DNA from: Squalus acanthias
Lineage: Eukaryota
Assembly: GCA_030390025.1 (NCBI GenBank)
Contig: CM059432.1
Span: forward strand, 10,106,001-10,170,000
Length of the DNA: 64,000 nucleotides
Direction of reading: 5' to 3'
Part shown: positions 1,201 to 62,385 of the stretch, piece after piece
How positions within the stretch are numbered: position 1 is the stretch's first letter
Layout: every line of letters starts with the position of its first letter
The notes under the pieces: model-generated
Database searches by the model: none
Told to the model about the DNA's origin: nothing
What the model saw: the letters and a program-made list of their open reading frames with translations, nothing else
Position numbers and translations under genes: made by a program

Positions 1201-1843
1201 TTTTTTTTATTCGTTCCTGGGATGTGGGCGTCTCTGTCAAGGCCAGCATTTATTGCCCATCGCTAATTTCCCTTGAGAAGGTGGTGGTGAGCCACCTTCT
1301 TGAACCGCTGCAGTCCGTGTGGTGAAGGTGCTCCCACAGCGCTGTTAGGGAGGGAGTTCCAGGATTTTGACCCAGCGACGATGAATGAACGGCCAATATA
1401 CTTCTAAGTCAGGATGGTGTGTGATGTGGAGGGGAACTTGGAGGTGGTGATGTTCCCATGCACCTGCTGCCCTTGTCCTTCTAGGTGGCAGAGGTCGCGG
1501 GTTTGGGAGGTGCTGCCGAAGAAGCCTTGGCGAGTTGCTGCAGTGCATCTCGTAGATGGTACACACTGCAGCCACGGTGCGCCGGTGATGGAGGGAGTGA
1601 ATGTTTAAGGTGGTGGATGGGGTGCCAATCAAGCGGGCTGCTTTGTCCTGGATGGTGTCGAGCTTCTTGAGTGTTGTTGGAGCTGCACTCATCCAGGCAA
1701 GTGGAGAGTATTCCATCACACTCCTTACTTGTGCCTTGTAGATGGTGGAAAGGCTTTGGGGAGTCAGGAGGTGAGACACTCACCGCAGAATACCTAGCCT
1801 CTGACCTGCTCTTGTTGCCACAATATTTATATGGCTGGCCCAC
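1201..1843 (-). mobile_element. LINE family B (CR1-group), 5'-truncated copy
   Basis: ORF 1345-1779 (IYKAQVRSVMEYSPLAW...LDTIQDKAARLI) and poly(A) tail; near-identical to 17911-18550. Confidence 0.9.
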
Positions 1844-2221: not shown

Positions 2222-3090
2222 CATGTCACCTCAAAAAGTCCACCAGCTCCAACAGTGTAGCACTCCCTCAGTATTACACTGCAATGTCAGCCTAGGTTAT
2301 ATGCTGCAGGTTCTTGGAGTGGGGCTTGAACCCAAGACTTTCCAACTAAGAGATGAGAGTGCCAGCACAGAGCCAAGGCTGACACTTGATATATGTGTTC
2401 CTCTTCCTCTGTCTGTCCACCTCTGTCTTTCTCTCACAAATACGGATAAGCACATAATATAGAAGGAGAGGAACACTGAAATCCATAACAGGACTACAGA
2501 TGTAACATAAGAAACAGGAGCAGGAGTAGGCCATTTGGCCCTTCGAGCCTGCTCCGCCATTCAATAAGATCATGGCTGATCTTCTACCTTATCTCCACTT
2601 TCCTGCACTATCCCCATATCCTTTGATTCCTTTAATATTCAAAAATCTACCGGTCTCTGTCTTGAATATACTCAACGGCTGAGCCTCCACAGCCCTCTGG
2701 GGTAGAGAATTCCAAAGGTTCACCACCCTCTTGAGTGAAGAAATTTCTCTTCATCTCAGTCCTAAATGGCCGACCCCTTATTCTGAAACTGCGACCCCTG
2801 GTTCTAGACTCTCCAGCCAGGGGAAACATCCTCCCTGCATCTGCCCTGTCAAGCCCTGTAAGAATTTTATACGTTTCAATGAGATCAGAAAGGGTTAGTT
2901 CAGAAAAGGGTACATGACGCACATGACTTAAAGGGCATTCGCTTCACAAGAGAGTTTTTGGCAGACTTTGCTGTGTTCTTGACCGAGAGCGAGAAATTCT
3001 GTTCAACATATTTCTCACAATAACTTCATAAGCAAGTAGTTTTTCAACGCAATTAGGTTATTTCTTCATAAATGAAACAAATTTTAATTG
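2222..3090. repeat. Arm 1 of local inverted duplication (partner: 5545-5794 + 8874-9105)
   Basis: SINE head plus adjacent unique sequence match the reverse complement of the partner; the ORFs at 2208 (+) and 8880 (-) translate to near-identical peptides. Confidence 0.85.
2504..2886 (-). mobile_element. CR1 3' end
   Basis: DLIETYKILTGLDR...TRG..F....RNFFTQ peptide; typical CR1 3' UTR and (ttcttatg) tail. Confidence 0.9.
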
Positions 3091-3113
3091 TTACTGTGCC
3101 TTAATCTGTATCA

Positions 3114-3271
3114 AAATGAGAAGTCGCACAACACCAGGTTATAGTCCAACAGTTTTATTTGAAATCACAAGCTTTCGGAGTGTGATTTCAAATAAAACTG
3201 TTGGACTATAACCTGGTGTTGTGCGACTTCTCATTTTTGTCCACCCCAGTCCAACACCGGCATCTCCGCAT
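3114..3271. mobile_element. Penelope-like element end (family P1), fold-back with 14-bp TSD
   Basis: ~60-bp inverted repeat; TSD cttaatctgtatca at 3100-3113 and 3272-3285; hammerhead core deleted from the loop. Confidence 0.85.
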
Positions 3272-16792: not shown

Positions 16793-17972
16793 GAGGCACA
16801 CTTCTTTTAGAAACTGAGTTGACTTGGGCCTGCCAATTGCATAGCAAATTCCACAAGTTACTAGCAAAACTACAGTCTAAATCCCTTCATTTAACTCATG
16901 GCTCAACATTTCTAGGAGTTCCTGTTTTGGCCACTATCTTTCGCACAGAATCGCTATCTCCCATCCCTAGTCCTGCCAAACATGAGCAACCTCTCTTCTG
17001 GACAGTCACTAGACGCTCTGATGGGATTGTTATCTCCCATGCCGGACCTGTTAATTGCCAAAGTGGCTTTCTTTCAATCCATTCAGCTGGAATACTCTTT
17101 CCCATTGCACATTGAACTGGCCATTGTTATTCAAGACATTTAAGAGATAATATTGCTTTAATTATTTTAATTGCAATCGGTAGAGCTTTCCCCACAACTA
17201 ATAGCAAGCTTGTGCTTCCATCATACTCCCAATAACTTTTCTCCATTCTTTATGGTTGCTGCCTCTGTGTCATGAAGAATTTATCTGAAGTCCCAAGACC
17301 AGGAGATTAGCTTGTCGTTGCAGCTGACATCCATTCTCCTGGTGATTTCAGGACTGATGTTATCACATCCAGATTGAAGTAATAGAGGACCGTTGTCAAT
17401 TTCTGCCTGAGTGACTGCTCAATTTCAATAGAGTTGTGCATAATGTCATTCTAAATCGAAGTTCCAATTGTGCATGCTATACTTCTTGGAAGCATATTAT
17501 TTAACGGTGTCAGCCATGGTTCAGTTGGTAGCACTCTCACCTCTGAATCTAGAAGGCTGTGGGTTCATTGTCCCACTCCCGATTCCTGAGCACAGAATCT
17601 AGGTTGGCACTCCCAGTGCAGTGCTGAGGGAGTGCTGCACTGTTGGAAGTGCTGTTTTTCGGATGAGAGGTTAAACCGAGGCCCCGTCTGCTCTCTCAGA
17701 TGGATGTAAAAGATCCCACAGCACTATTTCGAAGAAGAACAGGGGAGTTCTTCCTGGTGTCCTGGCCAATATTTATCCTTCAACCAACATCACTAAAACA
17801 AACAGATGATCTGGTCATTATCCCATTGCTGTTTATGGGAGCTTGCTGTGCACAAATTAACTGCCGTGTTTCCTACATTACAATAGTGACTACACTTCAA
17901 AAAAGTACTTTTTTTTTTATTCGTTCCTGGGATATAGGTGTCGCTGGCAAGGCCAGCATTTATTACCCATCC

Positions 17973-20883
17973 CTAGTTGCCCTTGAGACGGTGGTGGTGA
18001 GCCGCCTTCTTGAACCGCCGCAGTCCGTGTGGTGATGGTACTCCCACAGTGCTGTTAGGTAGGGAGTTCCAGGATTTTGACCCAGCGACGATGAAGGATC
18101 GGTGATATACTTCCAAGTCAGGATGGTGTGTGACTTGGAGGGGAACTTGGAGGTGGTGGTGTTCCCATGCGCCTGCTGCCCTTGTCCTTCTAGGTGGAAG
18201 AGGTTGCGGGTTTGGGAGGTGCTGCCGAAGAAGCCTTGGCGAGTTGCTGCAGTGCATCTTGTAGATGGTACACACTGCAGCCACGGTACGCCGGTGGTGG
18301 AGGGAGTGAATGTTTAAGGTGGTGGATGGGGGTGCCAATCAAACGGGCTGCTTTGTCCTGTATGGTGTCGAGTTTCTTGAGTGTTGTTGGAGCTGCACTC
18401 ATCCAGGCAAGTAGAGAGTATTCCATCACACTCCTTACTTGTGCCTTGTAGATGGTAGAAAGACTTTGGGGAGTCAGGAGGTGAGACACTCGCCGCAGAA
18501 TACCTAGCCTCTGACCTGCTCTTGTTGCCACAGTATTTATGTGGCTGGTCCAGTTAAGTTTCTGGTCAATGGTGACCCCCCAGGATGTTGATGGTGGGGG
18601 ATTTGGTGATTGTAATGCCATTGAATGTCAAGGGGCGGTGGTTAAAGACTCTCGCTTGTTGGAGATAGTCATTGCCTGGAAATTCTGTGGCACGAATGAT
18701 ACCTGCCACCTATCAGCCCAAGCCTGAACATCGTCCAGGTCTTGTTGCATGCGGGCATGGACTGCTTCATTATCTGAGGAGTTGTGAATGGCACTGAACA
18801 CTGTGCAGTCATCAGCGAACATCCCCATTTCTGACCTTATGTTGGAGGGAAGGTCATTGATGAAGCAGCTGAAGATGGTTGGGCCTAGGACACTGTCCTG
18901 AGGAACTCCTGCAGCGATTTCCTGGGGCTGTGATGATTGACCTTCAATCACCACAACCATCTTCTTTTGTGCTCGGCATGACTCCAGCCAGTGGAGAGTT
19001 TTCCCCCTGATTCCCATTGACTTCAGTTTTACTAGGGCTCCTTGATGCCACACTCGGTCATATGCTGCCTTGATGTCAAGGGCAGTCATTCTCAACTGAC
19101 CTCTGGAATTCAGCTCCTTTGTCCATGTTTGGACCAAGGCTGTAATGAGGTCGGGAGCAGAGTGGTCTTGGCGGAACCCAAACTGGGCATCAGTGAGCAG
19201 GTTCCGCTTAATAGCACTGTCGATGACACCTTCCATCACTTTGCTGATGATTGAGAGTAGACTGATGGGGCAGTAATTGGCCGGGTTGGATTTGTCCTGC
19301 TTTTTATGGACAGGACATACCTGGGCAGTTTTCCACATTGTCGGATAGATGCCAGTGTTGTAGCTGTACTGGAACAGCTTGGCTAGAGGCGCGGCTAGTT
19401 CTGGAGCACAAGTCTTCAGCACGATAGCCAGGATGTTGTCAGGGCCCATAGCCTTTGCTGTATCCAGTGCGCTCAGCCATTTCTTGATATCACGTGGAGT
19501 GAATCAAATTAGCTGAAGACTGGCTTCTGTGATGGTGGGGACCTCAGGAGGAGGCCGATATGGATGGTCCACTCGGCACTTCTGGCTGAAGACGGTTGCA
19601 AACGCTTCAGCCAAACGCTGGGCTCCACCATCATTGAGGATGGGGATATTATTGGAGCCTCCTCCTCCCGTTAGTTGTTTAATGGTCCACCACCATTCAC
19701 AACTGGATGTGGCAGAACTGCAGAGCTTTGATCTGATCCGTTGATTGTGGGATCGCTTAGCCCTGTCTATAGCATGCTGCTTCCGCTTTTTAGCATGCAT
19801 GTAGTCCTGTGTTGCAGCTTCCCCAGGTTGGCACCTCATTTTTAGGTACGCCTGGTGCTGCTCCTGGCATGCTCTTCTACATTCCTTATTGAATCAGGGT
19901 TGGTCCCCTGGCTTGATGGTAATGGTAGAGTGAGGGATATGCCAGGCCATGAGGTTACAGATTGTGGTGGAATACAATTCTGCTGCTGCTGATGGCCCAC
20001 AGTGCCTCATGGATGCCCAGTTTTGAGCTGTTAGATCTGTTCTGAATCTATCCCATTTAGCACGGTGGTAGTGCCACACAACACGATGGAGGGTGTCCTC
20101 TGTGTGAAGACGGGACTTTGTCTCCACAAGGATTGTGCGGTGGTCACTGCTACCAATACTGTCATGGACAGATGCATCTGCGACAGGTAGATTGGTGAGG
20201 ACGAGGTCAAGTAGGTTTTTCCCTCATGTTGGTTCTCTCACCACCTGTTGCAGGCCCAGACTGGCAGTTACGTCCTTCAGGACTCGGCAAGTAGTGCTAA
20301 CGAGCCACTCTTGGTGATGGACATTGAAGTCCCCCACCCAGAGAACATTCTGCGCCCTTGCTACTCTCAGTGCTTCGTCCAAATGGTGTTCAACATGGAG
20401 GAGTACTGACTCATCAGCTGAGGGAGGGCGGTAGGTGGTAATCAGCAGGAGGTTTCCTTGCCCATGCTTGACCTGAAGCCATGAGACTTCATGGGGTCCG
20501 GAGTCAATGTTGAGGACTCCCAGGGCCACTCCTTCCCGAGTGTATACCACTGTGCCACCACCCCTGGTGGGTCTGTCCTGCCGGAGAGACAGGACGTACC
20601 CAGGGATGGTGATGGAGGAGTTTGGGACATTGGCTGAAAGGTATGATTCTGTGAGTATGACTATGTCAGGCTGTTGATTGACTAGTCTGTGGGACTGCTC
20701 TCCCAATGTTGGCACAAGTCCCCAGATGTTGGTGAGGAGGACTTTGCAGGGTCGACTGGGCTGGGTGTGCCGTTGCCGTGTCCGTAGCCGGTGCCGAGGT
20801 CAACGCCGGGTGGTCCGTCCGGTTTTATTTTTATTATTCTTTCTTGTAGCGGTTTGTTACAACTGAGCGGCTTGCTGGGCCAT
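17973..20883 (-). pseudogene. Disrupted APE-RT polyprotein ORF of LINE family B
   Basis: ATG at 20883 (gaaATGg) is in frame with KVLLTNIWGL apart from two stops; later ORF pieces are 20224-20715, 19894-20127, 19504-19839, 18628-19449 and 17973-18338. Confidence 0.8.
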
Positions 20884-21024
20884 TTCAGAGGGCAGTTAAG
20901 AGTCAACCACATTGCTGTGGTTCTGGAGTCACATATAGACCAGACCAGGTAAGGACATTCAGATTTCCTTCCCTAAAGGACATTAGTTAATTAACTGAAT
21001 TTAAATTCCCCAGCTGCCATACTA

Positions 21025-21099
21025 GGATTTGAACTCACATCTCTGGATCATTAATTGAGGCCTCTGTATTACTAGTCCAGTAACATAACCACTCTGCTA
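21025..21099 (-). promoter_or_regulatory. Pol III type-2 internal promoter: A box TAGCAGAGTGG (21099-21089), B box GAGTTCAAATCC (21036-21025)
   Basis: Matches TRGCNNARYGG and GWTCRANNC; anticodon-like arm ctgga-ctAGTaa-t(a/c)cag lies between them. Confidence 0.75.
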
Positions 21100-21282
21100 C
21101 CGTACCTACTTCATTGGCTACAAACAAATTAGAACGTACCGAGATCATGAAAATAACTAGATAATTACAAGACTTTCTTTTTTTCTTTATTTATATATCT
21201 ATCACCATACACCTTCCAGCAGCTTTTAAGGCGTACTTTGAACATTAATTAATCCGATGCGTTCGAGCTCTTACCAAGTATA

Positions 21283-24574: not shown

Positions 24575-25011
24575 GGGGTATGGTAGCATAGTGGTTATGT
24601 TACTGGACTAGTAATCCTGAGGTCTAGACTAACTGATCTGCAAGACATGAGTTCAAATCCAACTATGGCAGCTGGGAATTTAAATTCAGTTAATTAAATA
24701 AATTTGGAATAAAAAAGCTAGTAGTAGTAATGGTGACCATGAAACTATCGGATTGCTGTAAAAACCCATCTGGTTTACTAATGTCCTTTAGGGAAGGAAA
24801 TCTGCCGTCCTTACCCGGTCTGGCCTATATGTGACTTCAGACCCACAGCAATGTGGTTGACTCTTAACTGCCCTCTGAAATGGCCTAGCAAAACACTCAG
24901 TTGTACCAAACCACTACAAAGAAGTATCATGGACTGTGGCGGTTCAAGATTAGTGGCCCACCACCTTCTCGAGGGCAATTAGGGATGGGCAATAAATGCT
25001 GACTAAAAAAA
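24575..25011 (+). mobile_element. tRNA-headed SINE that is an internally deleted form of LINE family B
   Basis: A box 24584-24594, B box 24649-24660; 24575-~24925 matches the LINE 5' end (21106-~20840); ~24928-25000 matches the LINE 3' end. Confidence 0.88.
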
Positions 25012-25024
25012 ACCAAGCTGCAAT

Positions 25025-25442
25025 GGTAGCTGTGACTCAGTGGGTAGCACTCTCGCTCTCTGCGTCAGAAGGCTGTGGGTTCAAGTCCCACTCCGGAGAC
25101 TTTGAGCACAAAATACAGGCTGACATTTCAGTGCAGTACTGAGGGAGTGCTGCACTGTCTTTCAGATAAGATGTTAAACCAAGGACCCTTCTCAGGTGAA
25201 TGTAAAAGATCCCATGGCACTATTTCGAAAAAGAGCAGGGGGAGTTCTCCCCTGGTGTCCTGGCCATTGTTTATCCCTCAACCAACACCCTAAAACAGGT
25301 GGTCATTATCACTAAGAGAGAGGTGTTTGTGGGAGCTTGCTGTGTGCAAATCGGCTGCCGTGTTTCCTGTACTTCATTGGCTGTAAAGTGCTTTGGGACA
25401 GCTTGGATGCTGTGAAATGTGCAATATAAATTCTTTCTTTTA
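25025..25442 (+). mobile_element. Deu-domain SINE
   Basis: tRNA-like head (gggttcaagtcc), Deu core, tail. Confidence 0.8.
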
Positions 25443-28842: not shown

Positions 28843-29675
28843 AGGGATATAGTTAAGTGAGTGGGCAAGAAGGTGGCAGATGGAGTACAATGCAGGGAAA
28901 TGTGAGGTTATTCACTTTGGTAAGAAGAATAGAAAAATTGAATTTTTTTAAATGGTGAGAAATTATTAAATGTTGGTGTTCAGAAAGATTTGGATATCCT
29001 TGTACATGGAACACAAAGAGTTAACATGCAGGTACAGCAAGCAATAAGGAAGGCAAATAGTATGTTGGCCTTTATTGCAAGGGGGTTGCAGTATAAGAGT
29101 AAGGAAGTCTTGCTACAATTGTACAGGGCCTTGGTGAGACCACACCTGGAGTACTGTGCACAGTTTTGGTCTCCTTTTCTAAGGAAGGATATACTTGCCT
29201 TGGAGGCGGTGCAACGAAGGTTCACTAGATTGATTCCTGGGATGAGAGAGTTGTCCTATGAGGAGAGATTGAGTAGATTGGGCCTATACTCTCTGGAGTT
29301 TAGAAAAATGAGAGGTGATTTCATTGAAACATGTAAGATTCTGAGGGGGATTAACAGGGTAGATGCTGAGAGGCTGTTTCCCCCAACTGGAGTGTCTAGA
29401 ACTATGGGGTCATAGTCTCAGGAAAAGGGGTCAGCCATTTAGGACCAAGATGAGGAGAAATTTCTTCACTCAGAGGAGTGCGAATCTTTGGAATTCTCTA
29501 CCCCAGAGGGCTGTGGAGGCTCAGTCGTTGAGTATATTCGAGACTGAGATCGATAGATTTTTGGACTCTAAGGGAATCAAGAGATATGGGGATCGAGTGG
29601 GAAAGTGGAGTTGAGGTAGAAGGTCTTATTGAATGGCGGAGCAGGTTCGAGGGGCCGAATGGATTAATCCTGCTC
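28843..29675 (+). mobile_element. CR1 RT/3' portion
   Basis: KCEVIHFG, LVRPHLEYC, NFFTQR motifs. Confidence 0.9.
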
Positions 29676-30585
29676 CTTTTTTTAATTCGTTCATGGGATG
29701 TGGGCGTCTCTGGCAAGGCCAACATTTATTGCCCATCCCTAATTGCCCTTGAGAAGGTGGTGGTGAGCCGCCTTCTTGAACCGCTGCAGTCCGTATGGCA
29801 AAGGTACTCCCACAGTGCTGTTAGGGAGGGAGTTCATTGATTTTGATCCAGCGACGATGAAGGAACGGCCGATTTATTTCCAAGTCAGGATGGTGTGTGA
29901 CTTGGAGGGGAACTTGGAGGTGGTGGTGTTCCCATGCACCTGCTGCCCTTGTCCTTCTAGGTGATAGAGGTCGTGGGTTTGGGAGGTGCTGGTACGCCAG
30001 TGGTGGAGGGAGTGAATGTTTAAGGTGGTGGATGGATGCCAATCAAGCGGGCTGCTTTGTCCTGGATGGTGTTGAGCTTCTTGAGTGTTGTTGGAGCTGC
30101 ACTCATCCAGGCAAGTGGAGAGTATTCCATCACACTCCTTACTTGTGCGTTGTAGATGGTGGAAAGACTTTGGGGAGTCAGGCGGTGAGACACTCGCCAC
30201 AGAATACCTAGCCTCTGACCTGCTCTTGTTGCCACAGTATTTATGTGGCTGGTCCAGTTGAGTTTCTGGTCAATGGTGACCCTCCAGGATGTTAATGGTG
30301 GGGGATTCGGCGATGGTAATGCCGTTGAATGTCAAGGCGCGGTGGTTAGACTCTCACTTGTTGGAGGTAGTCATTGCTGATTACCACCTACCGCCCTCCC
30401 TCAGCTGATGAACCAGTACTCCTCCATGTTGAACACCACTTGGAAGAAGCACTGAGAGTAGCAAGGGCACAGAATGTACTCTGGGTGGGGGACTTCAATG
30501 TCCATCACCAAGAGTGGCTCGGTAGCACCACGACTGACCGAGCTGGCCGAGTCCTGAAGGACATAACTGCCAGTCTGGGCCTGCC
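29676..30585. mobile_element. LINE family B copy with 5' inversion (- 29676-30377; + 30374-30585)
   Basis: 3' end on - strand joined head-to-head to an APE segment (LITTYRPP...VGDFN) on + strand. Confidence 0.82.
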
Positions 30586-31767: not shown

Positions 31768-32134
31768 GAGTAGCTGAGTAGCTGATCTCTGAGCTGGTGC
31801 TGGGAAGAGATAGAGCGAGGGGCGGTGCTTCTTCGAGAGGGTTCTCCTCCTCCTTCGCAAGATGAAGCAGAAGCCTTGGAGGGGGAGAAGGGACAAGGGT
31901 TATTATGGAGAAAACAGCTAACAGAGCAGGGGATGACTGTCAACGTTAGACGGCACCAAAGTGCCACTACATGCAGGATAGTGAGAGGAAAGAGAGATTG
32001 TAGTAATAAAGGTAGACACCATACTGTGGGCGTGTGCCAGGCTTACCATCACCAATGCTTCTGGCTGCTCCTTGCCCCAAATCTGCATCGCTTCCTCCTC
32101 CATTCTGAGTGACGGGGTGGATGGAGGCATCTGC

Positions 32135-33955
32135 CCCCCTACCACCCTCTCCCCCTCCCCATCCCCACCCCCACCCTCTCCCCCTCCCCCCTCTGCCCCA
32201 CCCTCTCCCCCTCCCCCACCCTCTCCCCCTCCCCCCCTCCGTCCCAACCTCTCCCCCTCCCCATTCCGCCCACACCCTCGCCCCCCTCCACCCACACCCT
32301 CTCCTCCTCCGCCCCACCCTCTCCCCCTCCCCCACCCTCTCCCCCTCCGCCCCACCCACTCCCCCTCCCCCACCCTCTCCCCCTCCCCCACCCTCTCCCC
32401 CTCCCCCCTCCGCCCCACCCTCTCCCCCTCCCCCACCCTCTCCCCCTCCACCCAAACCCCCTCCCCCTCCTCCCCCACCCTCTCCCCCTCCCCCACCCTC
32501 TCCCCCACCCCCACCCTCTCCCCCTCCCCCACCCTCTCCCCCACCCTCTCCCCCACCCTCTCCCCCACCCTCTCCCCCTCCCCCACCCTCTCCCCCTCCG
32601 CCCCACCCTCTCCCCCTCCGCCCCACCCTCTCCCCCTCCCCCCTCCGCCCCACCCTCTCCCCCTCCCCCCCTCCGCCCCAACCTCTCCCCCTGCCGCACC
32701 CTCTCCCCCGCCCCCCTCCACCCACACCCTCTCCTCCTCCGCCCCACCCTCTCCACCTCCCCCACCCTCTCCCCCTTCCCCCCTCCACCCACACCCTCTC
32801 CCCCTCCCCCACCCTCTCCCCCCACCCTCTCCCTCCTCCACCCTACCCTCTCCCCCCTCCGCCCCACCCTCTCCCCCTCCCCCACCCTCTCCCCCTACGC
32901 CCCACCCTCTCCCCCTCCGCCCCACCTCTCCCCTCCCCTCCGCCCCACCCTCTCCCCCTCCCCCCTCCGCCCCAACCTCTCCCCCTCCCCCACCCTCTCC
33001 CCCCCCCATTCCGCCCACACCCTCGCCCCCCTCCACCCACACCCTCTCCTCCTCCGCCCCACCCTCTCCCCCTCCCCCCACCCTCTCCCCCTCCGCCCCA
33101 CCCTCTCCCCCTCCCCCCACCCTCTCCCCCACCCTCTCCCCCCTCCGCCCCACCCTCTCCACCCTCTCCCCCCTCCGCCCACACCCTCTCCCGCCTCCCC
33201 CACCCTCTCCCCCTCCGCCCACACCCTCTCCCCCTCCCCCCCACCCTCTCCCCCCTCCGCCCCCACCCTCTCCCCCTCCCCCCCACCCTCTCCCCCCTCC
33301 GCCTCCACCCTCTCCCCCTCCACCTACCCTCTCCCCTCCCCCATCCGCTCCCCTCCACCCACCCTCTCCCCCTCCACCCACCCTCTCCCCCTCCGCCCCA
33401 CCCTCTCCCCCCTCCGCCCACACCCTCTCACCCCTCCCCCCACCCTCTCCCCCCTCCCACCACCCTCTCCCCCTCCCCCACCCTCTCCTCCTCCCCCACC
33501 CTCTCCTCTCCCCCCTCCGCCCACACCCTCTCCCCCCCTTCCCCCCCACCCTCTCCCTCCTCCGCCTCCACCCTCTCCCCTCCCTCCCATCCGCTCCCCT
33601 CCACCCACCCTCTCCCCCTCCGCCCCACCCTTTCCCCCTCTGCCCCACCCTCTACCCACTCCGCCCACACCCTCTCACCCCTCCCTCCCCCACCTTCTCA
33701 CCCCTCCCCACCCCCACCCTCTCACCCCTCCCCACCCCCACCCTCTAACCCCTCCCCACCCCCACCCTCTCACCCCTCCCCACCCCCACCCTCTCACCCC
33801 TCCCCACCCCCACCCTCTCACCCCTCCCCACCCCCACCCTCTCACCCCTCCCCACCCCCACCCTCTCACCCCTCCCCACCCCCCACCCTCTCACCCCCCA
33901 CCCTCTCACCCCTCCCCCGCCCCCACCCTCTCACCCCTCCCCACCCCTCTCCCCT
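32135..33955. repeat. C-rich variant minisatellite (~17-20-nt CCCCACCCTCTCCCCCT(CCG) units, then ~24-nt CCCTCCCCACCCCCACCCTCTCAC units)
   Basis: Visible directly; extreme C skew on + strand. Confidence 0.95.
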
Positions 33956-34189
33956 CAATGCCTGGAAAGCCCACAAATGAAATGCAAATAAGTCTCGGCT
34001 GTCAGACTTGACCATGGGTTCCGCACCACGTGACTGGGGCAACCAGATCGATCGCCCCCACCCACTGACCACCCGAACACTGCCTGGGGTGGGGGGGAGG
34101 AGGGCGGGGAATCTACCCCAGAGACTCATTGTTGTTTTCTTGTGCAAAAGCTACGATTAGACAGTTCCTGGTTCTTGCTAAGTTAGACT

Positions 34190-37466: not shown

Positions 37467-40364
37467 CTAATCCCATTTTCCAGCACTTGGTCCGTAGCCT
37501 TGTATACTATGGCGTTTCAAGTGCTCATCTAAATGCTTCTTGAATGTTGTGAGGGTTCCTGCCTCTACCACCCTTTCAGGCAGTGAGTTCCAGATTCTAA
37601 CCACCCTCTGGGTGAAAAAGTTTTTCCTCAAATCCCCTCTAAACCTCCTGCCCCTTACCTTGAAACTATACCCCCTGGTTATTGACCCCTTTACTAAGGG
37701 GAAAAGTTGCTTTCTATCTACCCTATCTATGCCCCTCATAATTTTGTACACCTCAATCAGGTCCCCCCTCAGCCTTCTCTGCTCTAAGGAAAACAACCCC
37801 AGCCTGTCCAGTCTCTCTTCATAGCTGAAGTGCTCCAGCCCAGGTAACATCCTGGTGAATCTCCTCTGCACCCTCTCCAATGCAATCACATCCTTCCTAT
37901 AGAGTGGTGACCAGAACTGCACACAATATTCCAGCTGTGGCCTAACTAGCGTTTTGTACAGCTCCATCATAACCTCCCTGATCTTATATTCTATGCCTCG
38001 GCTAATGAAGGCAAGTATTCCATATGCCTTACCTACCTGTCCTGCTGCCTTCAGGGATCTATGTACATGCACACCCAGGTCCCTCTGATCCTCTGTCCTT
38101 CCTAGGGTCCTACCATTCATTATGTATTCCCTTGCCTTGTTAGTCCTCCCAAAATGCATCACCTCACACTTTTCAGGGTTAAATTCCATTTGCCACTGTT
38201 CTGCCCATCTGACCAACCCGTCTATATCGTCCTGTAGCCTGAGGCTTCCCTCCTCGCTATTTACCACCCCACCAATTTTCGTGTCATCTGCGAACTTACT
38301 GATCATACCTCCTACATTCATATCTAAATCATTAATGTACACTACAAACAGCAAAGGACTCAGCACCAATCCCTGAGGTATACCACTGGACACAGGCTTC
38401 CAGTCACAAAAACAACCTTCGACCATCACCCTCTGCCTCCTGCCACTAAGCCAATTTTGGATCCAATGTGCCAAATTGCCCTGGATCCCATGGGCTCTTA
38501 CCTTCTTGACCAGTCTCCCATGCAGGACTTTGTCAAAAGCCTTACTGAAGTCCATGTAGACTACATCAACTGCACCACCCTCATCCACACACCTAGTCAC
38601 CCCCTCGAAAAATTCAATCAAATTGGTTAGACATGATCTCCCCCTGACAAAGCCATGCTGACTATCCTTGATTAATCCTAGCCTCTCCAAGTGGAGACTA
38701 ATTCTGTCCCTCAGAATTTTTTCCAATAATTTCCCTACCACTGATGTTAGGCTCAGTGGCCTGTAATTCCCTGGTTTATCCCTACTACCCTTCTTGAATA
38801 ATGGTACGACGTTAGCTGTCCTCCAGTCCTCTGGCACCTCCCCTGTGGCCAGAGAGGTTCTGAAAATTTGTATCAGAGCCCCTGCAATCTCCTCCCTTGC
38901 CTCACACAGAGGCCTGGGATACATCTCGTCTGGGCCTGGGGATTTATCCACTTTTAAGCCCACTAAAACCATTAGTACCTCCTCCCTCTCAATACTAATT
39001 TGTTCAAGTATATCACAATCAACCTGCCTGATTTCTATGCCTACATCGTCCTTCTCCATAGTGAACACAGATGCAAAATATTCATTTAAAACCTCACCCA
39101 CATCTTGGGGCTCTACACACAGATTTCCACTTTGGTCCCTTATGGGCCCTACTCTTTCCCTGATTATCCTCTTGCCCTTAATATACTTATAAAACACCTT
39201 GGCATTTGCCTTTATTTTGCCCGCCAGTGTTTTTTCATGCCTCCTCTTCGCTCTCCTAATTTCTTTTTTAAGTAACCCCCTGCACTTTCTATACTCCTCT
39301 AGAGCTTCAACTGTTTTTAGTCCTTTGTATCTGTCAAATGCCTCCCTTTTTTTCCTAATCTAGTCTTGTATATCCCTTGACATCCAGGGTTCCCTGGGCT
39401 TGTTGGTCCCACCCTTGACCTTTACGGGAACATGTTGGCGTTGTACTCTCTCTATTTCCTTTCTGAAAGACTCCCACTGCTCTGATGTGGATTTTCCTAC
39501 AAGTAGCTGATCCCAGTCCACTTTGGCCAGATCCTGCCTTATCATATTAAAATCGGCCTTCCCCAATTTAGAACCTTTATTTCCGGTCCATCTTTGTCCT
39601 TTCCATGACTACCTTAAATTTCATCGAATTATGGTCACTGTCACCAAAATGCTCTCCTACTGACACTTCTACCACTTGCCCGGCTACATTCCCTAGAATT
39701 AGAAAACTCTCTTTCTCTCTCCACGGATGCTGCCTGGCCTGCTGAGTTTTTCCAGCGTTTTCTGTTGTTATTTCCCTAGAATTATGTCCAGTACCGCCCC
39801 CTCTCTTGTAGGACTTTCAACATGCTGGCTCAAAAAGCTCTCCTGGATGCACTTTAAGAATTCCACACTCTCTAAGCCTTTCACACTCTGACTATCTCAG
39901 TTAATATTGGGGAAGTTGAAATCCCCTACTATTATTACCCTATTATTTCTACACTTCTCTGAGATTTGCCTACATATCTGTTCCTCTATCTCCCCCTGAC
40001 TGTTTGGGGGCCTATAGTACACTCCCAGCAAAGTGCTTGCCCCCTTTTTGTTTTTAAGTTCTACCCATATGGCCTCATTAGAGGAACCTGCTAAGATATC
40101 ATCCCTCCTTACAGCAGTAATTGACTCCTTGATTAATATTGCGATACCCCCTCCTCTTTTACACCCCCCTCTGTCTAGCCTGAAGATTCTATACCCTGGA
40201 ATATTGAGCTGCCAGTCCTGCCCCTCCCTCAACCATGTCTCTGTGATAGCAACAATATCATACTCCCATGTGTTCATCAACACCTTCAATTCATCTGCCT
40301 TAGTCGTAAAACTCCTTGCATTAAAATAAATGCCATCCAGCCTTGCCATACTCCCTTGTGCCAT
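37467..40364 (-). pseudogene. CR1 ORF2 (APE 39897-40364; RT 37467-39197 open for 576 aa), disrupted
   Basis: YFNARS, AITETWL, YRPP, VGDFN; KSPGPD, QHGF, DFSKAFDKV, KFADDTK; frameshift and Penelope insertion in between. Confidence 0.9.
39702..39771 (+). mobile_element. Penelope-like end (P2) inside CR1 ORF2, 13-bp TSD
   Basis: TSD ttccctagaatta at 39689-39701 and 39772-39784. Confidence 0.82.
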
Positions 40365-53860: not shown

Positions 53861-55865
53861 TTATCCATGCACCTTATAGTTATGCCCCCTTGTAACAGCT
53901 GCCTCTACCCGAGGAAATAGTCTCTGAACATCCACTCTATCTATCCCCCTCATCATCTTATAAACCTCTATTAAGTCGCCTCTCATCCTCCTCCGCTCTA
54001 AAGAGAAAAGCCCCAACTCCCTCAATCTTTCCTCATAAGACCTCCCCCCCAAACCAGGCAGCATCCTGGTAAATCTCCTTTGCACTCTTTCCAATGCTTC
54101 CACGTCCTTCCTATAGTGAGGTGACCAGAACTGCACACAATATTCCAAATGTGGTCTCACCAAGGTCCTGTACAGTTGCAGCATAACCTCACGGTTCTTA
54201 AACTCAAACCCTCTGTTAATAAACGCCAACACACCATAGGCCTTCTTTACTGCTCTATCCACTTGAGTGGCAACCTTCAGAGATCTGTGGATATGAACCC
54301 CCAGATCCCTCTGCTCCTCCACATTCCTCAGAACCCTGCCGTTGACCCTGTAATCCTTATTCAAATTTGCCCTACCAAAATGAATCACCTCGCACTTATC
54401 AGGGTTAAATTCCATCTGCCATTTTTCGGCCCAGCTCTGCATCCTATCAATGTCTCTTTGCAGCCTACAACTGCCCTCCACCTCATCCACTACTCCACCA
54501 ATCTTGGTGTCATCAGCAAATTTACTGATCCACCCTTCAGTCCCCTCCTCCAAGTCATTGATAAAAATCACAAACAGCAGAGGACCCAGCACCGACCCCT
54601 GTGGCACACCGCTGGTAACTGGTCTCCAGTCCGAAAATGTTCCATCCACCACCACCCTCTGCCTTCTATGAGATAGCCAGTTACCTATCCAATCGGCCAA
54701 ATTTCCCTCTATCCCACAACTCCTTACTTTCTTCATGAGACGACCATGGGGAACCTTATCAAACGCCTTACTAAAATCCATGTATACGACATCAACTGCT
54801 CTACCTTCATCTACACACTTAGTTACCTCCTCAAAGAATTCAATCAAATTTGTTAGGCAAGACTTACCCTTCACGAATCCGTGTTGACTATCCCTGATTA
54901 AGTTGCCCCTTTCCAAATGGTCATAAATCCTATCCCTCAGGACCTTTTCCATTATCTTACCAACCACCGAAGTAAGACTAACCGGCCTATAATTACCAGG
55001 GTCATTCCTATTTCCTTTCTTGAAGAGAGGAACAACATTCGCCACTCTCCAGTCCTCTGGCACCATCCCCGTGGACAGTGAGGACCCAAAGATCAAAGCC
55101 AGAGGCTCTGCAATCTCCTCCCTTGCCTCCCAAAGAATCCTAGGATATATCCCATCTGGCCCAGGGGACTTATCGACCCTCAGGTTCTTCAAAATTGCTA
55201 AAACATCTTCCCTCAGAACATCTACCACCTCCAGCCTATCCACCTTTATCACACTCTTATCCTCAAGAACATGGCCCCTCTCCTCGGTGAACACTGACGA
55301 AAAGTATTCATTCATCACCTCTCCTATCTCTTCTGACTCCATGCATAAGTTCCCACTACTGTCCTTGACCGGCCCTACCCTCACCCTGGTCATTCTTTTA
55401 TTTCTCACATAAGAGTAAAAAGCCTTGGGGTTTTTCTTGATCCGACCCGCCAAGGACTTCTCATGCCCCCTACTAGCTCTCCTAAGCTCTTTTTTTAGCT
55501 CATTCCTTGCTACCTTGTACCCCTCAATCGACCCAACTGAACCTTGTTTTCTCATCCTTACATACGCTTCCTTTTTCCTCTTGACTAGACATTCAACCTC
55601 TTTTGTGAACCATGGTTCTCTCACTCGGCCATTTCCTCCCTGCCTGACAGGGACATACCTATCAAGGACACGCAGTAATTGCTCCATGAAAAAGCTCCAC
55701 TTTTCGTTTGTGCCTTTCCCTGATAGTTTCTGTTCCCATCTTATACTCCCTAATTCTTGCCTAATCGCATCATAATTACCCCTCCCCCAATTATAAACCC
55801 TGCCCTGCCGTATGGCCCTATCCCTCTCCATTGCAATAGTGAAAGTTACCGAATTGTGGTCACTA
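53861..55865 (-). mobile_element. CR1 ORF2 segment, open for ~665 codons, both ends missing
   Basis: SDHN...KSPGPDG...QHGF...[10 protein letters not shown]...KFADDTK...TRGHNYK with no stops. Confidence 0.95.
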
Positions 55866-55911
55866 CTCCTTCTCCTTCCAAAGTGCAGCAAATCATGAAC
55901 TAAGGATACAC

Positions 55912-56385
55912 AAAGAAGAAAAAGAAAAAAGACTTGCATTTACATAGCATCTTTCACGATCTCAAGACGTCCCAAAGCGCTATACAGCCAATGAAGTACT
56001 TTTTGAAGTGTAGTCACTGTTGTAATGTAGGAAACATGGCAGCCAATTTGCGCACAGCAAGCTCCCACAAACTGCAATGTGATAATGACCGGATAATCTG
56101 TTTTTGTCATGTTGATCGAGGGATAAATATTGGCCAGGACACCAGGGAGAACTCCCCTTGCTCTTCTTCAAAATAGTGCCGTGGGATCTTTTCTGTCCAC
56201 CTGAGAGAGCAGACGGGGCCTCGGTTTAATGTCTCATCCGAAAGACGGCACCTCCGACAGTGCAGCACTCCCTCAGCACTGCACTGGATTGTCAGCCTAG
56301 ATTTTGGCGCTCAAGTCTCTGGAGTGGGACTGTGAACCCACAACCTCCTGACTCAGAGGCGAGGGTGCTGCCCACTGAGCCGCAG
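55912..56385 (-). mobile_element. Full-length Deu-domain SINE
   Basis: Reverse complement of the 46722-47203 type. Confidence 0.88.
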
Positions 56386-58744: not shown

Positions 58745-59530
58745 TGTTCCTGGGATGTGGGCGTCGCTGGCAAGGCCAGCATTTATTGCTCATCCCTAGT
58801 TGCCCTTGAGAAGGTGGTGGTGAGCCGCCTTCTGGAACCGCTGCAGTCCGTGTGGTGAAGGTTCTCCCACAGTGCTGTTAGGGTGGGAGTTCCAGGATTT
58901 TGACCCAGTGACGATGAAGGAATGGCGATATATTTCCAAGTCAGGATGGTGTGTGACTTGGAGGGGAACTTGGAGGTGGTGGTGTTGCCATGCGTCTGCT
59001 GCCCTTGTCCTTCTAGGTGGTAGAGGTCGCGGGTTTGGGAGGTGCTGCCGAAGAAGCCTTGGTGAGTTGCTGCAGTGCATCTTGTAGATGGTACACACTG
59101 CAGCCATGGTGCGCCGGTGGTGGAGGGAGTGAATGTTTAAGGTGGTGGATGGGGTGCCAATCAAGCGGGCTGCTTTATCCTGGATGGTGTCGAGCTTCTT
59201 GAGTGTTGTTGGAGCTGCACTCACTCAGGCAAGTGGAGAATATTCCACCACACTCCTGACTTGTGCCTTGTAGATGGTGGAAAGGCTTTGGGGAGTCAGG
59301 AGGTGAGACACTCGCCGCAGAATACCCAGCCACTGACGTGCTCTTGTAGCCACAGTATTTATGTGGCTGGTCCAGTTAAGTTTCTGGTCAATGGTGACCC
59401 CCCCCAGGATGTTGATGGTGGGGGATTCGGTGATGGTAATGCCATTGAATGTCAAGGGGAGGTGGTTAGACTCTCACTTATTGGAGATAGTCATTGCCTG
59501 CACTTCTGTGGCGTGAATGTTACTTACCAC
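58745..59530 (-). mobile_element. LINE family B 3' portion
   Basis: Similar to 17920-18710. Confidence 0.9.
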
Positions 59531-60159
59531 TTAATAGTCCATATTTGAATCATGTTTGAATAATATTTTTAGGGAGGGTGCCTTTCAGTCCCACACATGA
59601 CATCACTCTTTTCCTGAATTTCATGGATGAGAAACATCAAATTTAGCAGTTGTCATTCTGGCAGGCCACATTTTACAGGTACATTGAAGTGTTTGGCATA
59701 TTCTCGCTGCACAAATGCAGAGATTTAAATGCCTGTTAAATCAATTTAAATGATGTTCAATGGTCTAATTCATCCCACACTCCATTGGGCAGCTTGCTGT
59801 GCAGACCAAAGATTGGTTGGTTGCTAAAGAACAGCAAAATGGGGGTGAACAGGATGATGAAAAAGCTTTCGTGTCTCACAGCTAGCCCTCGAGTAACACA
59901 CCACTGTAATTTCTAGGCTTGTATCACACTGAACATAGCAGCATCAATTCAATAGAAGGGACAAGAATGGTTGTGACAGAGAGAGAAGACTCGAGACTAG
60001 AGGTGACAGAGGATTTGCTTTTGGATGACAAGGTTCAGAGTGCAAGGGTGTGCGTAAGTAGAGCCTCCCCAGATATGGGGACAGGACTATTTAAGTCTGG
60101 GGCAAATTTGGGTTTTATAGGGCGAATGAAGGTTGTGAATGTCGAATGGAACCATCAGC

Positions 60160-61040
60160 AACAATAGCAACAACTTGCTTTTATACAGCGCCTTTAATGT
60201 AGTAAAAAGTCCCAAGGCGCTTCACAGGAGCGTTATCAGACAGAACTTGACACCGAGACACATAAGGAGATATTAGGACAGATGACCAAAAGAGGTAGGC
60301 TTTACGGAGCGTCTTAAAGGAGGAGAGCGAGGTAGGGAGGTGAAGAGGTTTAGAGAGGGAATTCCAGAGCTGAGGGCCGAGGCAGCTGAAGGCTTCACGG
60401 TGGCATAGTGGTTAGCACTGGTGCCTCACAGCGCCAGGGACCCGGGTTCGAATCTGGCCTCGGGTGACTGTCTGTGTGGAGTTTGCACATTCTCCCCGTG
60501 TCTGCGTGGGTTTCCTCCGGGTGCTCCGGTTTCCTCCCACAGTCCAAAAATGTGCGGGTTAGGTTGATTTGGCTATGATAAATTGACCCTTAGTGTTAGG
60601 GGGGGATTAAATATGTGGGGTTACGGGGATAGGATGGGATATGTTAGGGGGAATTAAATACGTGGGGTTATGGGGATAGGGTGGGATATGTGTCGGTGCA
60701 GGCTCGATGGGGATTCTGTGTGAGAGAGCAGGGACAGGGTACTGGATTTGGATGATCAGCCATGATCGTATTGAATGGTGGAGCAGGCTCGACGGGCCGA
60801 ATGGCCTACTCCTGCTCCTAGTTTCTATGTTTCTATGTTTCTAAGGCGCGGCCGCCAATGGCGGGGTGGAAAAAAATCGGGGATGCGCAAGTGGCCTGAA
60901 TTGGAGGAGCGCGGATAGGACTGGAGGTGGCTACAGAGACAGGGAGAGGCGAGGCCATGGAGGGATTTGAAAAGAAGAATGAGAATTTTAAAATTGAGCC
61001 AATTTAGGTCAGCGAGCACAGGGGTGATGGGTGAACGGGT
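60160..61040 (-). mobile_element. L2 3' end split by a V-SINE
   Basis: Similar to 10474-10940. Confidence 0.82.
60394..60842 (+). mobile_element. V-SINE (HE1-like) with CR1-derived tail
   Basis: A box tggcatagtgg, B box gggttcgaatc, V-domain tgtgtggagtttgcacattctccccgtgtctgcgtgggtttcctccggg; TSD aaggc. Confidence 0.88.
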
Positions 61041-61868: not shown

Positions 61869-62139
61869 ATATATACACTCATCTTCTGATGCCCTGATCC
61901 CATTTAAGCTGGCAGCAGACACAGAGTGTACAGACAGATTCAATTGGCCTTTGGCCACACCCATCATTCTATTTCAATCTGGATGGCCGTGGTTAACGTT
62001 AACAGAGCAGATCCGTTCATTAGTCCAAGCCCGATTAGCTTTGGAAATCCCTCAGTTGTGCAAGGATGGATACGAAGGGAGCAGAGGGACGAAGGAAGCT
62101 GGCAATCAGCAGGTTCCCTTGCCCAAGTTTGACCTGCAG

Positions 62140-62385
62140 CCACGGTATTTCATGGGGTTCGGAGTCAATGTTGAGGACTCCCAGGGGCAAACCCCTCAGA
62201 TTGAATACCGCTGTGTCCCCCCACCTCTGGTGGATCTGACCTGCTAGTGGGACTGGGCATACCCAGGGATGGAGATGGAGGAGTCTGGGGTGTTGGCTGA
62301 TAGGTATGATTCTGCGAGTATGACTATGTCAGGCTGTTACTTGACGACTCTGTGGGGCAGCTTTCCCAACTTTAGCACCAATCCT
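62140..62385 (-). mobile_element. LINE family B endonuclease fragment, diverged
   Basis: Similar to 20455-20720. Confidence 0.75.

Follow-up and report, generated by a model that had tools for sequence, protein, structure and literature searches.

A window of 64,000 nucleotides (nt) from Squalus acanthias (GenBank assembly GCA_030390025.1, contig CM059432.1, positions 10,106,001 to 10,170,000 of the forward strand; positions below are those of the window, the whole stretch analysed) carries on its minus strand a full-length long interspersed element (LINE), here termed family B, in which a head derived from transfer RNA (tRNA), as found on short interspersed elements (SINEs), precedes a single long endonuclease-reverse transcriptase (RT) frame. 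Comparison of its copies shows the head and its position, a 5' end common to long copies, amplification of the headed form and a strand-specific purge of T-clusters beyond what protein and codon usage account for. RNA polymerase III (Pol III) probably makes full-length family B RNA from the head, with T-clusters kept out by selection for read-through. We infer Pol III as the selecting agent from the tRNA-type head and its start site from the 5' end shared by the DNA copies, and export and translation of the RNA are likewise presumed. An initial annotation, made without database searches, had proposed such selection on the grounds that the sense strand lacks TTTT; that count proved insufficient when taken alone, whilst the proposal gained support from tests of T|T pairs across codon junctions, of T3+ runs and of terminator motifs. 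The chances seem about even that the complete picture applies, namely an autonomous protein-coding retrotransposon with a Pol III-made messenger, a 3.2-kb transcript driven by a SINE head, a coding strand cleared of Pol III stops through synonymous and amino-acid choices, and translation of the endonuclease-RT from an uncapped RNA that lacks a conventional AUG.

Structure of the full-length copy

Read on the minus strand, the element consists of a tRNA-like head, a leader, a single long endonuclease-RT open reading frame (ORF) and a tail, with the following features.

17909..21106, minus strand: full-length tRNA-headed LINE, family B (self-BLAST, sequence)
20990..21106, minus strand: tRNA-derived head (motif scan)
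20833..21106, minus strand: 5' leader, head plus body, common with the SINE at 24577-24930 (BLAST of element nt 1-274)
17976..20844, minus strand: single ORF region, broken in the window copy (tblastn against the majority-frame translation)
20715-20224, minus strand: endonuclease (Pfam PF03372, PF14529)
19449-18628, minus strand: reverse transcriptase (Pfam PF00078, E 5.5e-28)
17909..18029, minus strand: 3' tail, common with the SINE (BLAST of element nt 3078-3153 against 24928-25001; sister tails)
17899..17904, minus strand: sense T6 outside the element, within the host repeat (sequence; loose-end consensus in four sequencing runs)

The initial annotation had placed the right-hand end correctly at 21106, but its start at 17920 clips 11 bases of the tail, and with the A-run included the element extends from about 17909. 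Within the head, an A-box-like motif, TAGCAGAGTGG, lies at 21099-21089 (minus strand), 8 nt from the 5' end, and a B-box-like motif, AGTTCAAATCC, at 21035-21025 (minus strand), with a spacer of 53 nt between them. In the window itself ARAGORN called no tRNA gene and no Rfam match reached its gathering score. The heads of sister copies bear what appears to be a weak similarity to tRNA: that of locus L056 matches the Rfam tRNA model at 26.2 bits (E 0.082), under the gathering score of 29, and ARAGORN called a tRNA-Thr(agt) in one of the 14 sister loci scanned (L058). The leader (20833..21106) contains neither a run of four T (T4) nor any non-canonical terminator motif. A 72-nt leader segment, present in most full-length copies and in the SINE (24702-24773), is missing from the window copy near 20985-20995 (minus strand). 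The ORF region, which in the window copy is disrupted by stops and frameshifts, continues after the RT into a C-terminal domain. The tail contains AATAAA and terminates in GAAT followed by A10, so that the 3' end of family B is an A-run and not a microsatellite, and the sense T6 of the host repeat starts 4 nt past this A-tail. In the majority sequence AATAAA stands at nt 3140 (tail) and at the very end of the element, and three AATAAA motifs are found within the 5' leader.

With a length of ~3.2-3.3 kb and its own endonuclease-RT frame, family B lies outside the definition of a SINE (below ~0.7 kb, non-coding), and it has the 5' tRNA-derived head with A and B boxes that defines SINE2 elements. 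An apurinic/apyrimidinic (AP) endonuclease and an RT in one ORF are the marks of an autonomous APE-type LINE. At the level of DNA, the element also has the features of a type-2 Pol III unit, namely internal A and B boxes, a shared 5' end 8 nt before the A box and, in the majority sequence and 13 of 20 copies, no internal T4.

The headed LINE is an amplified family

Using the first 507 nt of the element as query against the genome (3.7 Gb), we scored 40 of 6119 first-look candidates and fetched 39 loci, of which 19 were near full length. The 5' region thus has 6119 first-look candidates, and a piece of the 5' ORF gave 2943; both figures refer to candidates rather than to scored copies. The junction between leader and ORF was identical in all 36 loci examined, a set that includes the window copy and was drawn from the scored candidates. 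Among these, 14 loci shared their first nucleotide with the SINE and 17 started no more than 4 nt away from it, whilst the remaining 19 were 5'-truncated at scattered points. Because the head-ORF junction recurs across 36 loci with a shared 5' end, the headed LINE is a real amplified family and no chance pair of neighbours. Family B is dispersed; its copies are 5'-truncated to varying extents, share one 3' end and show target-site duplication, the last in one of nine copies tested: locus L035 has an exact 38-nt flank duplication around the unit from head to A-tail, and the other eight showed no clear duplication.

Template switching by an RT is a well-known source of chimeric LINE copies, and family B could in principle be such a dead end, in which the RT switched onto SINE RNA and the product never served as a transcription unit, leaving its T-runs uninformative on Pol III. 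This origin is barely credible. The junction is invariant in 36/36 loci examined, no SINE tail stands between leader and ORF, and the 20 near-full-length copies, picked because their 5' region resembled that of the window copy, diverge by only 3-5.5% from their own majority sequence, which indicates that the headed form itself was amplified.

The window copy was inserted inside an older, very abundant repeat (17700-17908 and 21107-21150), which runs uninterrupted over the insertion site in contigs of four sequencing runs (X1, X3, X9, X16); the flanks of the insertion share 3-4 nt only (GTAC/GTAG, sense strand). Family B itself was found in contigs of the same four runs, which are labelled as four different organisms. 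At the best-supported sites, these contigs all differ from the window copy in the same way, and the majority sequence of family B is therefore common to those organisms. Contig depth across the element increases toward its 3' end. A further segment, 62062-62384, was considered as a diverged family B subfamily and rejected, as it is an old copy whose matches are all ~82% identical.

Absence of T4 from the sense strand

The plus strand of 17920-21106 contains no AAAA run, next to 12 TTTT, 9 CCCC and 10 GGGG runs, at an A content (the T share of the sense strand) of 20.6%. As the coding sense is the minus strand, its sense strand is without T4 over this interval. The initial annotation had reported by manual scan both the missing AAAA and the frequent TTTT of the plus strand, and the recount bears it out. 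Its further counts also held: family B fragments at 1210-1843, 29690-30585 and 58745-59530 have no AAAA on the plus strand, the SINE (24575-25001) has no TTTT on its own plus strand, and an ordinary CR1 element (37467-39197), credited with about ten sense T4+ runs, has 12. Its rough expectation of about 5 runs for the element lies close to that for independent and identically distributed (iid) bases, which is 4.6 for the window copy and 3.7 for the majority sequence. The T4-free fragments and the SINE add little, being short, non-independent copies of one family, with iid expectations of 0.2 to <1 for each fragment and 1.7 for the SINE. The longest AAAA-free stretch of the window is 17901-21149 and the second longest (31911-34145) consists of a C-rich satellite with a 20-bp unit, so the record among non-satellite sequence belongs to family B. 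The satellite array (32142-33954; 1.8 kb) comprises ~89 copies of the C-rich 20-bp unit CCACCCTCTCCCCCTCCGCC and has neither AAAA nor TTTT.

The initial annotation had named a count on the family consensus as a check, and the majority sequence built from the 20 copies (3184 nt, of which 19.5% are T) is without any T4+ run, against 12 A4+, 11 C4+ and 9 G4+. T4 is absent from 13 of the individual copies; the other seven carry nine runs at nine different alignment columns, which marks these as private runs that arose after insertion. Under iid bases the probability of zero T4+ in the majority sequence is 0.023. Codon shuffles, run on the 973-codon majority ORF, are less decisive: synonymous-codon shuffles yield an expectation of 1.87 (P(0) 0.11) and codon-order shuffles of 1.78-1.79 in two runs (P(0) 0.14). 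A first-order Markov model (expectation 1.47, P(0) 0.23) was rejected as a test, since it absorbs the very TT depletion under study. For LINE frames the synonymous shuffle serves as a fair null, because 30 metagenome LINE frames together contained 674 T4+ runs against a summed shuffle mean of 645. The count of T4 is consequently only weakly beyond chance, and the synonymous-codon control, which the initial annotation had itself named as a refuting test and which gave zero T4 in 11% of shuffles, denies it the standing of independent proof.

Codon usage, too, speaks for a purge. When the family B protein was given the codon usage of the CR1-like frames of the window, the expected number of T4+ runs was 5.4 (P(0) 0.0013), and with uniform synonymous usage it was 5.1 (P(0) 0.004). 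Phe makes up 1.85% of family B residues versus 4.25% in those CR1-like frames. Phe codons, which the initial annotation had singled out for inspection, are skewed (TTT:TTC = 3:15), and this preference is in line with a general excess of C at third positions (34.5%).

Depletion of T-clusters beyond protein and codon usage

Chance acting on an ordinary lineage composition, with a sense strand rich in C and poor in T, a bias to TTC among Phe codons and a low Phe content, but with no selection against T-runs, would accommodate the T4 count, given how often zero T4 arises (11% of the synonymous and 14% of the codon-order shuffles, 23% of the Markov simulations) and that the TTC preference tracks third-position C. 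It is nevertheless a quite improbable account of the wider pattern. Pairs of T across codon junctions (T|T) number 8 in the majority frame, against 25.0 expected (z -4.15), a value reached in 0/3000 shuffles. The third base is T in 6.3% of codons that precede a T-starting codon, versus 21.1% before other codons. Synonymous shuffles give 11.3 runs of T3+ where 5 are observed (P 0.004), and terminator motifs are as improbable under the same shuffles (P 0.004; see below). Relative to iid bases, the run spectrum falls from 0.95 at T2 to 0.46 at T3 and zero at T4+, whilst runs of A, C and G lie between 0.64 and 1.29. Junction-spanning T runs are likewise reduced at length 2 (6 versus 15.9, P 0.00075), length 3 (2 versus 7.2, P 0.015) and length 4+ (0 versus 1.9). 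A|A junctions stand at 0.78 of expectation against the three-fold depletion of T|T, making the effect strand-specific, and T|A junctions are somewhat low too (0.71).

We compared 37 LINE frames, namely family B, six open CR1-like frames of the window and 30 frames from metagenomes, the last being those of 80 loci that had an open frame of 700 amino acids (aa), with the other 50 dropped. ARAGORN found no tRNA head on the metagenome comparators (0 in 30 loci). Family B was the most extreme of the 37 frames on every measure: its junction T|T ratio of 0.32 is the lowest (next, 0.66), as is its T3+ ratio of 0.44 (next, 0.75). The initial annotation had proposed a comparison with headless LINEs, and 0/36 headless frames, all of them distant, came near the family B values. 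Two of the CR1-like copies of the window, at 37470-39359 and 53864-55939 (minus strand), have open frames of 630 and 692 aa and are seemingly young; their sense strands are purine-rich, with C at ~14.5%, and very unlike family B.

Individual copies carry 7-17 junction T|T, and relative to the majority sequence the 20 copies show 91 gains and 12 losses. This imbalance in dead copies indicates that host mutation pressure opposes the depleted state. In the window copy alone, nine private T|T gains have accumulated and the depletion is no longer significant.

Pol III terminator motifs

According to Orioli et al. 2011 (PMC3141230), human Pol III stops efficiently in vitro at T4 and T5 and partially at T3VT2/T2VT3, T3VT/TVT3 and T2VT2, with efficiencies of ~50% for TCT3, 32% for T2AT2 and 15% for T2CT2, whereas an isolated T3 causes hardly any termination. 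With such weak non-canonical terminators, depletion through selection for read-through need not show a step at T4. We counted T4+, TTVTT, TVTTT and TTTVT, a set chosen after the T|T result had been seen, with its content taken from that paper. The sense strand of the majority sequence has 0/1/0/0 of these, one motif in total against 14.7 under iid bases, whilst the antisense strand has 12/20/8/15, a total of 55 that matches the iid expectation of 55.1 and argues further against chance. The 20 real copies average 3.7 sense motifs (range 1-10) and 55 antisense motifs. Part of the head is absent from the majority sequence, so leaders were tested separately, and five leaders of 350 nt (four sister leaders and the SINE) had 0-1 sense motifs versus 10-17 antisense.

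Within the ORF, one motif compares with 7.4 in synonymous shuffles. The resulting ratio of 0.13 contrasts with a median of 0.96 for the 37 frames and a comparator minimum of 0.62, and motif density is 0.34 per kb in family B versus at least 7.8 per kb in each of the 36 comparators. The motif classes described for human Pol III (PMC3141230) are thus the same as those nearly missing from the family B sense strand.

Proposed transcription and the polymerase II alternative

Family B would be an autonomous family of LINEs, with RNA that begins at an internal Pol III promoter of the SINE type, derived from tRNA. TFIIIC and TFIIIB would assemble over the head at its A and B boxes, Pol III would start ~8 nt upstream of the A box, at what is the common 5' end of long copies, and it would then run for ~3.2 kb to a tail presumably recognised by the RT of the element itself. 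T4+ halts Pol III, interrupted T-clusters do so with lower efficiency, and cluster-free lineages alone would yield full-length RNA. The purge could then act on three levels, through low T content with a Phe-poor protein, through TTC in place of TTT and through avoidance of T|T at codon junctions, and the absence of T4 would be its visible tip, with dead copies regaining T-clusters by mutation.

Family B might instead be transcribed by RNA polymerase II (Pol II), from a promoter in the leader or by host read-through, with a U-cluster purge of another cause and the head kept for another role. Candidate causes are avoidance of the premature cleavage and polyadenylation that U-rich downstream elements might induce in an A-rich RNA, avoidance of U-rich sites that destabilise the RNA or expose it to nucleases, or a codon-pair effect, and the head might act as a tRNA-like processing signal that sets the 5' end, by analogy with the R2 ribozyme. 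We regard this alternative as unlikely, though deserving of weight. It would suit a depletion that is graded from T2 without a step at T4, the ratio of 0.71 at T|A junctions, and the AATAAA motifs in the tail and at the very end, which resemble those of polyadenylated Pol II LINE RNAs. In published opinion (Kojima 2018, PMC5786205), autonomous LINEs are Pol II transcripts. Set against this, 0/36 other LINE frames, presumably read by Pol II, are so purged (lowest junction ratio 0.66, lowest motif ratio 0.62). The shared 5' end coincides with the expected start of a type-2 Pol III unit and with the 5' end of the SINE, three AATAAA motifs are tolerated within the 5' leader, and the head, if it acted as a tRNA-like processing signal, would also draw cleavage behind itself.

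Several considerations weigh against Pol III transcription with selection for read-through. The copies are all products of one burst, which makes the purge a single evolutionary sample. With protein and codon usage fixed, the T4 count alone is non-significant (P 0.11). The junction and motif tests were chosen post hoc and are mutually correlated, and the comparators are remote (identity is 26% for the window frames and 28-45% for the AT-rich metagenome frames) and include no close headless sister family. One sense motif, a TTCTT within the ORF, does persist. The terminator data come from human Pol III, in vitro, at the flanks of tRNA genes, whereas family B belongs to a different animal and is a 3-kb unit. 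Depletion is graded from T2 upward, where a pure T4 rule predicts a step; under Pol III transcription the gradation appeals to weak terminators or to second-order selection, and it fits the published weak terminators but also any other pressure against U-rich RNA. Finally, we know of no natural element for which 3-kb Pol III transcripts and their translation have been established.

Coding frame and translation

The majority frame is open for 973 codons, whilst the whole frame is open in 0/20 individual copies. Its closest database proteins are single-ORF endonuclease-RT proteins of 930-980 aa with 41-47% identity, in comparison with only ~26% between family B and the CR1-like elements of the window, and family B may belong to the CR1, L2 or Rex1-like group, with neither a protein atlas nor the database names pointing to a clade. 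Up to codon 286 the main frame contains no in-frame ATG, and none stands ahead of the endonuclease domain (20780-20850 region, minus strand), where related proteins have an initial M ~15 residues before the endonuclease motif. At the leader's end, 15 of the 20 copies have an ATG that starts a 49-codon frame, offset by -1 from the main frame and overlapping it; no canonical slippery heptamer for a -1 shift from this short frame into the main frame was seen by eye, and no tool scan was made. As judged from the frame, translation of family B would be unconventional under any polymerase, and an uncapped RNA with no in-frame AUG ahead of the endonuclease domain would call for it in particular. Pol III transcripts are reportedly usable as mRNA and can be polyadenylated through AAUAAA.

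Partner SINE and relation to known systems

Pairs of a tRNA-derived SINE and a partner LINE are known, such as the elasmobranch HE1 SINE with the HER1 LINE and eel UnaSINE1 with UnaL2. SINE2 elements of such pairs consist of a tRNA-type head, in which A and B boxes lie, a body and a 3' tail that the LINE carries in identical form, and they contain no internal T4; the window contains a SINE of this build.

24577..25001, plus strand: partner SINE, 0.42 kb, no T4 (BLAST)

This SINE, which unlike the family B LINE fits the short, non-coding SINE2 definition, consists of the LINE head and leader, including the 72-nt segment, fused to the terminal ~75-95 nt of the LINE's tail. A deletion joint that matches it (~20886 to ~18008-18014) occurs in contigs of three of the four runs (X1, X3, X16). 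Head, leader and tail are thereby common to the SINE and the LINE, and in family B the head and leader also stand on a 3.2-kb autonomous element, ahead of the endonuclease-RT ORF. In classical pairs, by contrast, only the 3' tail and at times parts of the 5' untranslated region are common, and the LINE is assumed to be transcribed by Pol II (PMC5786205).

In Kojima 2018 (PMC5786205), autonomous and bipartite LINEs are both taken to be transcribed by Pol II, and only deleted derivatives acquire small-RNA heads. The partner SINE resembles the bipartite derivatives described there in being an internal-deletion product made of the 5' and 3' parts of a LINE; the difference is that in the bipartite model the head sits on the deleted derivative, whereas in family B it sits on the full-length coding element.

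A precedent for unusual transcription is R2, which is co-transcribed with ribosomal RNA by Pol I, has its 5' end set by a ribozyme like that of hepatitis delta virus and is translated without a cap. R2 and family B are alike as autonomous non-LTR (long terminal repeat) elements with a polymerase other than Pol II, putatively so in family B, and with unconventional translation initiation. R2 is, however, site-specific, has a restriction-like endonuclease and lacks a promoter of its own, whereas family B is dispersed, encodes an AP-type endonuclease and has a putative internal Pol III promoter. Full-text literature searches, whose coverage did not extend to Repbase or most subscription journals, returned no tRNA-headed or Pol III-transcribed autonomous LINE.

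In the standard account, LINEs are transcribed by Pol II and SINEs by Pol III, with SINEs borrowing only the LINE tail. Should the Pol III reading of family B be true, Pol III would be the polymerase of a natural 3-kb mRNA, and SINEs might originate from a headed LINE through nothing more than an internal deletion; the partner SINE would be such a derivative and the boundary between SINE and LINE would be blurred. Family B would also offer a natural system for the study of Pol III processivity and of the translation of Pol III transcripts. Counting terminator motifs on sense and antisense strands against codon shuffles provides a cheap screen applicable to any repeat library.

Other repeats of the window

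Four further pairs of A-box-like and B-box-like motifs lie on the plus strand, at 25033-25088, 60401-60455, 29598-29654 and 31771-31850. Those at 25033 and 60401 resemble the heads of other tRNA-derived SINE families, and the tblastn table contains no LINE frame after any of the four. Besides the full-length copy and the old copy at 62062-62384, the window holds three shorter copies of family B.

1210..1842, minus strand: 5'-truncated copy, element nt 2555-3187, no sense T4 (self-BLAST)
29686..30584, minus strand for the 3' part (nt 2432-3187): rearranged copy (self-BLAST)
58746..59541, minus strand: 5'-truncated copy, nt 2387-3184, no sense T4 (self-BLAST)

In the rearranged copy, an inverted internal piece (nt 660-857) lies at 30375-30584 on the plus strand, and both AAAA and TTTT are absent from both strands of it. 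A 3' part joined to an inverted internal piece is the pattern left by twin priming in L1.

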